DNA from: Escherichia coli
Lineage (GTDB): Bacteria > Pseudomonadota > Gammaproteobacteria > Enterobacterales > Enterobacteriaceae
Assembly: GCF_016026235.1 (NCBI RefSeq)
Contig: NZ_CP065613.1
Strand: one strand, 5' to 3'
DNA: 64,000 nt
Below the pieces are notes generated by a model. That model saw only the letters and a program-made list of their open reading frames with translations. It was not told the origin of the DNA and did not search any database. The first letter of the stretch is position 1; each line of letters starts with the position of its first letter. The position numbers and the translations under genes were made by a program. Positions 19,864 to 44,827 of this stretch are shown in pieces.

Positions 19864-19940
19864 GCGTTCATAGCTCAGTTGGTTAGAGCACCACCTTGAC
19901 ATGGTGGGGGTCGTTGGTTCGAGTCCAATTGAACGCACCA
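19864..19940 (+). tRNA. valV: tRNA-Val (anticodon GAC)
   Basis: 77 nt cloverleaf; GCGTTCATAGCTCAGTTGGTTAGAGC..., anticodon loop CTTGACATGG, 3' CCA encoded. Confidence 0.92.
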
Positions 19941-19944
19941 TCCT

Positions 19945-20021
19945 GCGTCCGTAGCTCAGTTGGTTAGAGCACCACCTTGACATGGTGGGGGTCGGTGGTT
20001 CGAGTCCACTCGGACGCACCA
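19945..20021 (+). tRNA. valW: tRNA-Val (anticodon GAC), tandem copy
   Basis: 77 nt, 4 nt after valV, differs at a few acceptor/T-stem positions; 3' CCA encoded. Confidence 0.92.
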
Positions 20022-20128
20022 GATTTTCTTAATCTGGTCTTCTCCTTTTTCCCTCTGTTTCTTCTCTGTATCCAATACGTTAAAAGATTTACACTGTCTT
20101 CGTATGCGTTATCAGAAGGAGAATCGCT

Positions 20129-20434
20129 ATGGCAACTTTGTTACAACTTCATTTTGCTTTTAATGGCCCATTTGGCGACGCAATGGCTGAGCAGCTTAAA
20201 CCGCTTGCTGAGTCGATTAATCAGGAACCTGGTTTTCTGTGGAAGGTATGGACAGAAAGTGAAAAGAACCACGAAGCCGGTGGGATCTATCTTTTTACTG
20301 ATGAAAAAAGCGCCCTTGCCTATCTGGAAAAACATACTGCCCGACTTAAAAATCTCGGCGTTGAGGAAGTTGTCGCCAAAGTTTTCGATGTCAATGAGCC
20401 ACTGAGTCAAATCAATCAGGCAAAACTCGCCTGA
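20129..20434 (+). CDS. ydhR: Small conserved protein YdhR (putative monooxygenase-like)
   Basis: 101 aa ORF with RBS AAGGAGAA. Confidence 0.85.
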
Positions 20435-38231: not shown

Positions 38232-38600
38232 CTATACCCCAAAGCTTTCGCCACAGCCACATTCATTCTGGGCTTTAGGGTTGTGAAATTTGAATATCTG
38301 ATTAAGTCCTTCACGAACGAAATCGACTTCCGTGCCATCAATAAACGGCATCGCTTGCAGCGGGACAAACAGCTTCGCGCCGTCGTGTTCAAACAGCAGA
38401 TCGTCTTTGTCCGGCTCGCTAACACTGTCGAGCACATAGCCAAAGCCCGCGCAGCCCGTTTGCTTCACGCCTAAGCGCACGCCGACCATACCCGGCTGCT
38501 TTGCCACCAGCTCACGGATGTGTATCGCCGCTGCGGGTGTCAGCGTTAAGCCTTGCCAGGCGAAATCTTGTGGGTTAAAGGTTCCTGAATGCATGTCCAT
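38232..38600 (-). CDS. sufA: A-type Fe-S carrier SufA
   Basis: 122 aa with C..CGC.SF motif. Confidence 0.92.
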
Positions 38601-38659: not shown

Positions 38660-38891
38660 AGTTCAACCCAGCAAACGCAGGGGCTTTACCGTAAAACATG
38701 CTTTTTGCCTGCTTTTAATAAGCATAGACCCTGATGTGTAGGTTAACAGGCACGCTAAGAATTAGGTATCTCATTGTTAGATAATGGTTATTATCTAAGG
38801 GCATTAAGGCTGTGATGAAAAAGAAAAAGTTGTATTGAAAATGACTATTTAAGAGATAGGTAAAAAAGTGCAGCGTTCAGAAATAAGAAAA

Positions 38892-38927
38892 CCCTTAAGT
38901 CTGTGCGACACAGGCTTAAGGGTTTCT
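38892..38927. terminator. Hairpin in sufA-ydiH intergenic region (expected location of sRNA rydB; assignment uncertain)
   Basis: 14 bp stem CCCTTAAGTCTGTG / CACAGGCTTAAGGG with one G-T pair, flanked by AAAA and TTTCT; could terminate either strand. Confidence 0.4.
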
Positions 38928-39146
38928 ACCCCATCCGGCGCTTATCTCCGGCACTCTCAGTGGCTTAGCTCTTGAAGGGGCGATAAGAATAATCTCATAA
39001 AGCTAACCCGTCGTTTTAACACAAACTGCGATTAGTATTATTTTTGAACAATATCAGGCGGTAGATAAGCAGTATTAAGAAGGTCATCGAACCTGGACGG
39101 AGGTTAATCCAGGTCGATTTGGCGAACTTGCGGCATTAAGTCAGGA

Positions 39147-39335
39147 TCAATGCACGCCCAGACGCCAGGCAAAGTAGATTTCTTCTTTTAATTCAGCAGA
39201 AGAGAGAGTAAGCAGGTCAGCAAATTCAAGTTCTAGTTGTTTCAGACGTTTGAGATATTGGGCAGGTGAAAGATTGCTCTGGTCACGGCGTAAAAATTCA
39301 ATGGCCAGCTGGGTGGGATCAAGTTGAGTAGACAT
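39147..39335 (-). CDS. ydiH: Small protein YdiH
   Basis: 62 aa from MSTQLDPTQL...; ORF track extends upstream to 39416. Confidence 0.7.
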   Translation of the reverse strand: MSTQLDPTQLAIEFLRRDQSNLSPAQYLKRLKQLELEFADLLTLSSAELKEEIYFAWRLGVH

Positions 39336-39434
39336 AGCATCCTCGCTTTTAGACAAGACCTGCACAGTATACCACCGTTTACTGTGCAGATAATGACCAA
39401 AAACAATATGCGTCACACTTTTCTGGTGACAACG

Positions 39435-44584: not shown

Positions 44585-44690
44585 ACGGTTATAAATCAAC
44601 ATATTGATTTATAAGCATGGAAATCCCCTGAGTGAAACAACGAATTGCTGTGTGTAGTCTTTGCCCATCTCCCACGATGGGCTTTTTTTT
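44585..44690 (+). ncRNA. rprA: sRNA RprA (RpoS translational activator)
   Basis: Sequence ACGGTTATAAATCAACATATTGATTTATAAGCATGGAAATCCCC...GCCCATCTCCCACGATGGGCTTTTTTTT recognised as rprA including its terminator. Confidence 0.88.
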
Positions 44691-44827
44691 AACATTTTTC
44701 CGCTTCGCTACCTCGCCCCTCACTCTTTCCAATAATGTTGCACAAGATACTGTGACTCTCTTCAAGCCGTCAGCAGGCTGATAATGTTATTTATATTTTA
44801 TTGTTTATTTCATGCAGCCATTACACG

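Follow-up and report, generated by a model that had tools for sequence, protein, structure and literature searches.

Does the long hairpin in the spacer between ydiH and sufA of Escherichia coli end the gene of a small RNA (sRNA), and if so, on which strand is it read and to which RNA does it belong? The hairpin was previously described, from the sequence alone, as a candidate sRNA terminator in the spacer to which rydB maps in E. coli, and the strand and ends of that gene were left unassigned. We addressed these questions by analyzing the spacer within a 64-kb stretch of E. coli DNA (hereafter, the window), comparing rydB loci among the Enterobacterales, and consulting published RNA 3' ends.

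Genomic Context of the Hairpin

The 551-bp spacer of the window was 100% identical to that of one complete genome and 99.5% identical to that of K-12, and it was present in 5421 of 5426 complete genomes. Its length of ~550 bp, as previously estimated, agreed with the 546 bp that separate the sufA start (38600) from the ydiH stop (39147). The genes on the minus strand are arranged in the order ydiJ, menI (39845–39435), ydiH, the hairpin region, and sufA (table 1), and the sufA promoter region is situated between the hairpin and sufA. The sites of its regulators are located in the same interval, and the suf promoter region is known to bind OxyR, IHF, IscR, and Fur. In addition, a constitutive RpoD promoter has been listed for sufA (PMC3946193). 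Neither the terminator scan nor the Term-seq tables gave a terminator or a 3' end between ydiH and rydB; thus, ydiH transcripts may also end at the hairpin.

Two further features of the region were recorded. A 26-nt imperfect inverted repeat (39347–39402; 77% complementary, with a 4-nt spacer) was observed between a ydiH promoter-like site at 39432–39405 and the ydiH start codon, directly preceding the latter. A 35-aa open reading frame (ORF) on the plus strand (38868–38975) was rejected as coding, because the lengths of the orthologous hairpins vary by non-multiples of three and the frame is therefore not kept.

Table 1. Coordinates of Features at the rydB Locus (positions in the window)
Feature	Position	Strand	Basis or remark
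ydiH CDS	39147..39335	-	Upstream of rydB, same strand
Predicted rydB extended -10, TGaGATTAT	38989..38997	-	Conservation; predicted start near 38982/38981
rydB, K-12 MG1655 annotation (b4430, 68 nt; 1764713-1764780)	38926..38993	-	Mapped from K-12
Mature RydB sRNA, 61 nt	38921..38981	-	Rfam match and dominant 3' end in Term-seq
Terminator stem-loop (probable)	38889..38925	-	17 pairs, including one C.A mismatch (38914/38900)
5' arm of stem-loop	38925->38909	-	
Loop	38908->38906	-	UCG
3' arm of stem-loop	38905->38889	-	
T-run after stem	38879..38888	-	GGGUUUU-CUUAUUUCU, including the last stem bases
sufA CDS, first gene of the suf operon	38232..38600	-	289 nt downstream of the hairpin

Boundaries and Promoter of rydB

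The Rfam scan that had been proposed as a check located rydB in the ydiH–sufA spacer as expected. In particular, RF00118 matched the minus strand from 38981 to 38921 with 81.6 bits, above the gathering threshold of 50, and the match was full length (model positions 1–61 of 61); a permissive Rfam scan of the spacer returned nothing further of significance. The window and K-12 are identical through the rydB stretch. The K-12 annotation ends one base short of the stem, and the Rfam boundary is five bases into it; with rydB ending at 38921 or 38926 on the minus strand, the hairpin comes where a transcription unit of that strand ends. The last 5 nt of mature RydB (AAACC, 38925->38921) overlap the 5' arm of the hairpin, and because this overlap comprises only 5 nt (38921–38925), the hairpin was assigned neither to the RF00118 model nor to the mature RNA.

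A predicted extended -10 element precedes the gene. The pattern TGnGAnnAT was kept ahead of rydB-type cores in Escherichia, Citrobacter, Salmonella, Klebsiella/Raoultella, and Pantoea, and the start predicted from this element is the base with which the closing helix of the core begins. The annotated K-12 5' end of rydB (38993) sits within this conserved element; thus, the K-12 5' coordinate is probably imprecise. The Rfam 5' end (38981) fits the predicted start better, and the 68-nt annotation is probably 12 nt too long at its 5' side.

In the minimum free energy (MFE) structure of the predicted 103-nt transcript, the P1 helix of the core and the hairpin formed separate modules. When a minus-strand RNA of 121 nt was folded instead, the segment past the hairpin (CUUAUUUCUG..GCACU, 38865–38887) paired with the conserved RydB core segment AGUGCCGGAGAUAAG (38936–38953); this pairing is probably due to chance and would be relevant only to read-through transcripts.

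Structure and Strand of the Hairpin

An inverted repeat with a 3-nt loop is indeed present in the interval 38880–38930. Its arms (38889–38905, AAACCCTTAAGTCTGTG; 38909–38925, CACAGGCTTAAGGGTTT) are 17 nt each and 3 nt apart, and in an inverted-repeat scan they paired at 16 of 17 positions (94% complementary). The stem of 14 bp given in the earlier note corresponds to the CCCTTAAGNCTGTG core, and the A-run and T-run that it described as flanking the stem are three outer A-T pairs. The pair 38900/38914 is a T.G wobble on the plus strand and a C.A mismatch on the minus strand. The window contained only ten inverted repeats with a length of 14 nt or more, and this one alone had arms of at least 17 nt with more than 90% complementarity. 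Folded alone, the hairpin reached -25.2 kcal/mol (z -8.1) as plus-strand RNA and -21.3 kcal/mol (z -6.9) as minus-strand RNA, with 0 of 200 shuffles as good in either case; as RNA it is a stable, G+C-containing stem-loop. The hairpin was not called by a consensus terminator scan of the window, presumably because the scanner tolerated no internal mismatch, so that only the 5-bp apical stem was visible to it on the minus strand. The element is single-copy: each E. coli genome has it at one locus, and it does not recur in the window; the median of two matching places per genome arose because a palindrome matches itself.

The sequences that follow the stem differ between the two strands, with GGGTTTTCTTATTTCT on the minus strand and GGGTTTCTACCCC on the plus strand. 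In the 10-nt tail, T occupied seven of ten positions on the minus strand (GGGUUUUCUUAUUUCU) versus three of ten on the plus strand, and in 24 orthologs the mean was 7.2 on the rydB strand versus 1.8 on the opposite strand. On the transcribed strand, the stem is thus directly followed by a U-rich tract, and this strand-specific T-run was kept in all 24 close orthologs. No plus-strand gene in the window converges on the hairpin. Although the T-run is present only on the minus strand, the plus-strand fold was the more stable one in 15 of the 24 orthologs, because C.A mismatches of the rydB strand are read as G.U pairs on the other strand; this advantage may reflect just a few shared mutational events. 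As a strand test in these 24 orthologs, the asymmetry between G.U and C.A was uninformative or slightly contrary, and the strand call therefore rests on the T-run and on rydB itself. Taken together, the Rfam rydB match, the T-run, and the terminators of the orthologs described below settled the strand and the ends that were previously left unassigned, in favor of the minus strand.

Conservation of the Hairpin among Enterobacterales

To define the set for comparison, rydB loci were sought with the invariant core motif GCCGGAGATAAGCGCCGG in one genome per species, which yielded 120 loci. The motif had 122 matches, comprising the K-12 record itself, 105 matches in which the remainder of the rydB core was also present, and 16 that arose by chance in unrelated phyla. 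Two types of rydB-like loci were observed, type A (CAAGAGCTAAGCC), which includes E. coli, and type B (CAGAGCTAACGCC); all 19 B-type copies that were scanned scored above the Rfam rydB threshold. A terminator was counted when a hairpin with a T-run and a dG of -10 or lower was found within 60 nt downstream of a rydB-type core. By this measure, among the other Enterobacterales, terminators followed 44 of 53 A-type cores on the rydB strand, compared with 4 of 53 for the reverse complement and 2 of 53 for shuffled sequences; the corresponding counts for type B were 25, 10, and 1 of 48. The proposal that the hairpin is an sRNA terminator thus gained support from its position directly 3' of rydB, from a T-run restricted to the rydB strand, and from the difference between 44 and 4 among the 53 orthologous A-type loci.

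The hairpin sequences were completely unrelated between genera, which indicated that their function and position were conserved rather than their sequence. The menI/ydiH–rydB–sufA arrangement was observed only in Escherichia, Citrobacter, Salmonella, Leclercia, Silvania, and Pseudenterobacter; elsewhere, terminator-bearing rydB copies occupied unrelated neighborhoods, and the next ORF was convergent in ~31 of 81 copies of the rydB family. Since terminators also accompany rydB copies away from suf, the terminator belongs to rydB and not to suf, and the unrelated contexts together with the convergent ORFs indicated that rydB is not a cis-acting leader.

Within the group that shares the suf context (Escherichia, Citrobacter, Salmonella, Leclercia, and Silvania), the AACCCTTAAG...CTTAAGGGTT stem was homologous. 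Its lower part was 96.4% paired across 24 orthologs, with compensatory changes at four pairs; the covariation of the stem was 0.130 versus 0.090 in shuffles (0 of 500 shuffles as high), and shifting the partner columns destroyed the pairing. These results indicated that the hairpin and the U-run were kept in the orthologs while the stem covaried. The pair equivalent to 38900/38914 was hypervariable in the 24 orthologs (GC in 5, UA in 5, AU in 3, and mismatched in 11). The spacer between core and hairpin was unconserved in sequence; thus, no conserved endonuclease site was evident in it.

Several genomes showed further variation of the locus. The rydB family was represented by two to three copies per genome in unrelated contexts in Pantoea, Erwinia, Rouxiella, Serratia sp. 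M24T3, Raoultella, and Enterobacter sp. JUb54 (loci L010–L121), where promoter-like boxes accompanied every copy and a separate terminator most of them. In the soil isolate E. coli SC434 (NZ_LR778142.1, L124), the IS3-family element IS1397 (~1.4 kb) was inserted at ...GGGGTAGAAAC^ with an AAAC target duplication. This site corresponds to ~38922/38923 of the window, at the 5' base of the stem and one base off the 3' end of mature RydB, so that an intact rydB core was split from its terminator. In addition, a conserved block of ~70 nt (CAGAAAAGCGCATCGGC..CTTACCTCCTCG...GAGGGAGTACAGCAAAGGTTGTCGGTGCGCTTCTCTG) was found after the rydB-type copy at six Sodalis/Acerihabitans-type loci (L006, L040, L041, L083, L088, and L115). 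The block is absent from the window and had no Rfam match at the gathering threshold, and it lies 3' of a convergent ORF for a small hydrophobic protein (MQTNDITFLAALAVIIIGFVSFMYA) that resembles YnhF.

RNA 3' Ends at the rydB Locus

A single 3' end is listed for the ydiH–sufA interval in the Term-seq data of Adams et al. 2021 (PMC7815308, supplementary file 1), at K-12 position 1764708 on the minus strand. This position is 38921 in the window, which is the same as the 3' boundary of the Rfam match and is the fifth base of the 5' arm of the hairpin. It was the dominant 3' end of RydB in Term-seq from three growth conditions, with counts of 2.17 and 4.14 million reads shown; for comparison, the tRNA aspV had 3.5 million reads and the lpp terminator 0.08–0.18 million (PMC7815308). 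A dominant 3' end at 38921 indicated that the abundant form of RydB is ~61 nt long and is without the hairpin. Thus, the description of the hairpin as a candidate sRNA terminator held for the rydB gene, with the caveat that the hairpin does not belong to the abundant mature sRNA, the dominant 3' end being inside the stem and not after the T-run.

A 3' end at the T-run (K-12 ~1764662–1764675) was absent from the curated Term-seq tables, in which, of the peaks up to 50 bp past an annotated gene, the highest alone is retained. This absence is not decisive, because the T-run is 41–50 nt from the annotated end of rydB and a minor peak there would be filtered out. TERMITe likewise had no entry for a 3' end of rydB at the T-run, and neither a T-run end nor a nuclease site was listed for it in the Gordon RNase III tables or the RepRanger supplements. 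The RepRanger study itself associated rydB with a Rho-independent terminator (PMC12306157), and in Salmonella rydB was annotated as 105 nt (Sittka 2008; PMC2515195), which is the length expected for the core, the hairpin, and the tail. The public boundaries of rydB therefore conflict, with 61 nt in Rfam, 68 nt in K-12, and 105 nt in Salmonella, and we attributed this conflict to the difference between the mature RNA and a terminator-containing primary transcript.

A Proposed Pathway for RydB Transcription and Maturation

Taken together, we proposed that the hairpin and its T-run very probably form the minus-strand intrinsic (Rho-independent) terminator at which the rydB transcription unit ends. 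Several points count against this reading: the U-run is interrupted (UUUUCUUAUUUCU), the stem has a C.A mismatch on the rydB strand, the plus-strand fold is often the more stable one, the terminator scan made no call, and the Term-seq tables list a dominant 3' end inside the stem and none at the T-run. In the proposed pathway, RNA polymerase would start at the extended -10 promoter near 38982 and transcribe the structured RydB core of ~55 nt and then the 17-bp hairpin. We infer that transcription terminates at the T-run, where the RNA would be released in the U-run near 38880 as a primary transcript of ~103 nt. The hairpin would then be removed, and exonucleases would trim the RNA to 7 nt past the closing helix of the core, giving the 61-nt RydB that ends at 38921.

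The precursor and the trimming pathway are suggested by analogy with stable RNAs. The terminators of rnpB (M1 RNA) and of several tRNA transcripts are removed during 3' maturation, and the 3' exonucleases RNase II and PNPase stall ~7 nt from a helix. The mature end at 38921 leaves an overhang of 7 nt beyond P1, and the agreement of this overhang with the stalling distance is what points to removal of the hairpin followed by trimming back. As with the M1 and tRNA genes, RydB is very abundant and structured, and its steady-state 3' end is a few nucleotides past the closing helix and upstream of the terminator hairpin. The literature that we found contained no paper stating a stable-RNA-like maturation for RydB, and neither that literature nor the Gordon RNase III tables gave nuclease data for its processing.

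The terminator may also keep transcription of rydB, and possibly of ydiH, off the regulated suf promoter. Such insulation is suggested by the very high expression of rydB and by its location, ~350 nt ahead of sufA in the same orientation; sufA has a promoter of its own. The full proposal goes further than the identification of the terminator, and we hold it with moderate confidence: RydB would differ from the usual sRNA that keeps a terminator tail, a hairpin-terminated precursor of ~103 nt would be trimmed to the 61-nt RNA of tRNA-like abundance in the manner of M1 and the tRNAs, and the main task of the unusually long 17-bp terminator would be to shield the suf promoter, which is controlled by Fur, OxyR, and IscR, from the very strong promoter upstream.

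Alternative Explanations

The only serious rival is that the hairpin is mainly a processing or stability element, with RydB being cut, in or beside the stem, from a longer ydiH–rydB(–suf) read-through transcript. The dominant 3' end (38921) within the stem instead of the U-run would be accounted for in this way, as would the failure to find a 3' end or terminator between ydiH and rydB, and a stem of 17 bp has sufficient length for possible cleavage by a double-strand nuclease. However, a processing element does not agree well with a strand-specific T-run conserved in 24 of 24 close orthologs, or with terminator-like hairpins and T-runs behind rydB copies in unrelated contexts, many of which have a convergent gene next. 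In addition, the conserved -10 element directly upstream favors an independent gene, and the unconserved spacer between core and hairpin offers no evident conserved cleavage site. We consider processing out of a read-through transcript unlikely, and termination remains our preferred reading.

Considerably less likely is that the hairpin and the U-tail form a functional 3' module of mature RydB, as they do in Hfq-dependent sRNAs. Such a module would be the usual sRNA architecture, represented in this window by RprA, whose Rfam model includes its terminator, and the annotation of Salmonella rydB as 105 nt would agree with it. However, the terminator hairpin and the U-tail are not kept in mature RydB: the dominant Term-seq end was at 38921 in three growth conditions, and the Rfam model and the K-12 annotation both stop ahead of the hairpin. 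Moreover, RydB has been listed as Hfq-independent (PMC3933206), and its enrichment with Hfq was weak (4 against 10 reads; PMC2515195).

The location of the palindrome, ~290–330 bp upstream of the sufA start codon and in the promoter region, together with the conservation of the lower-stem AACCCTTAAG in the suf-context genera, raises the alternative that the palindrome is a DNA operator bound by a suf promoter regulator. We regard an operator as slightly less probable again than a module of the mature RNA, because the upper stem covaries and is not conserved, the loop varies in length, and, at rydB copies remote from suf, the hairpin in this position is unrelated; the asymmetry of the T-run would also be left without explanation.

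Still further down in probability, RydB could be the aptamer of a transcription-attenuating riboswitch or leader for suf, with the hairpin as its expression platform. The layout of a promoter, a conserved structured domain, a terminator, and a same-strand operon resembles such a system, but the family as a whole does not: the contexts of the copies are unrelated, and with the next ORF convergent in ~31 of 81 copies, a co-oriented, functionally related gene is not a consistent feature of the family. In E. coli, sufA has a separate promoter that lies past the hairpin, the 3' end of the abundant product is not at the terminator, no antiterminator pairing was evident by eye, and the 103-nt MFE structure keeps the core and the hairpin separate. 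Finally, we give almost no credence to a plus-strand or bidirectional terminator, a dispersed REP-like repeat, or a chance palindrome, since the slightly more stable plus-strand fold and the A-run that precedes the stem on that strand are outweighed by a plus-strand tail of TTTCTACCCC with no converging plus-strand gene, the hairpin is single-copy in E. coli genomes and lacks the many copies of REP/BIME elements, and 0 of 200 shuffles folded as well.

Other RNAs in the Window

Two other Rfam matches in the window were noted. The first, to the "sRNA" STnc550 (10882–11272, minus strand, 394.5 bits), contains the 29-aa ORF of YnhF (MSTDLKFSLVTTIIVLGLIVAVGLTAALH, 10885–10974, minus strand), which indicated that the matched RNA is not non-coding but is an mRNA that has a long structured leader. 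The second, to the "antisense RNA" HPnc0260 (19983–20145, minus strand), lies opposite the second of two tRNA genes at 19864–20018, and the match seems to result from the part of the model that is complementary to tRNA.

Relation to Known Systems and Implications

The locus in the window is the same as the known rydB locus of E. coli (b4430; RF00118; also tpe7/IS082) with its Rho-independent terminator, from which it shows no difference. The gene, the Rfam family, and the terminator are already known in E. coli, and as a discovery the locus carries little weight. The comparison with RprA (44585–44692), an Hfq-dependent sRNA encoded in the same window, is instructive with respect to the product. 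Both are short independent genes that end in a hairpin followed by a U-run; however, the mature RNA and the Rfam model of RprA include the terminator and the U-tail, whereas RydB excludes both, which fits its Hfq-independence. The rydB stem, with 17 bp, is also unusually long compared with the terminators of Hfq-dependent sRNAs. A reported effect of RydB is on rpoS.

These results have practical consequences for studies of the gene. Cloning or deleting rydB by its annotated coordinates omits the terminator or leaves it just upstream of the suf promoter, and such coordinate-based constructs could confound suf or rydB phenotypes. For the biology of RydB itself, its very high abundance together with a processed 3' end is unusual for an sRNA, and the question of its maturation is testable. 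The two to three rydB copies per genome that Pantoea, Erwinia, and Rouxiella carry may point to a housekeeping-type role for this RNA family.
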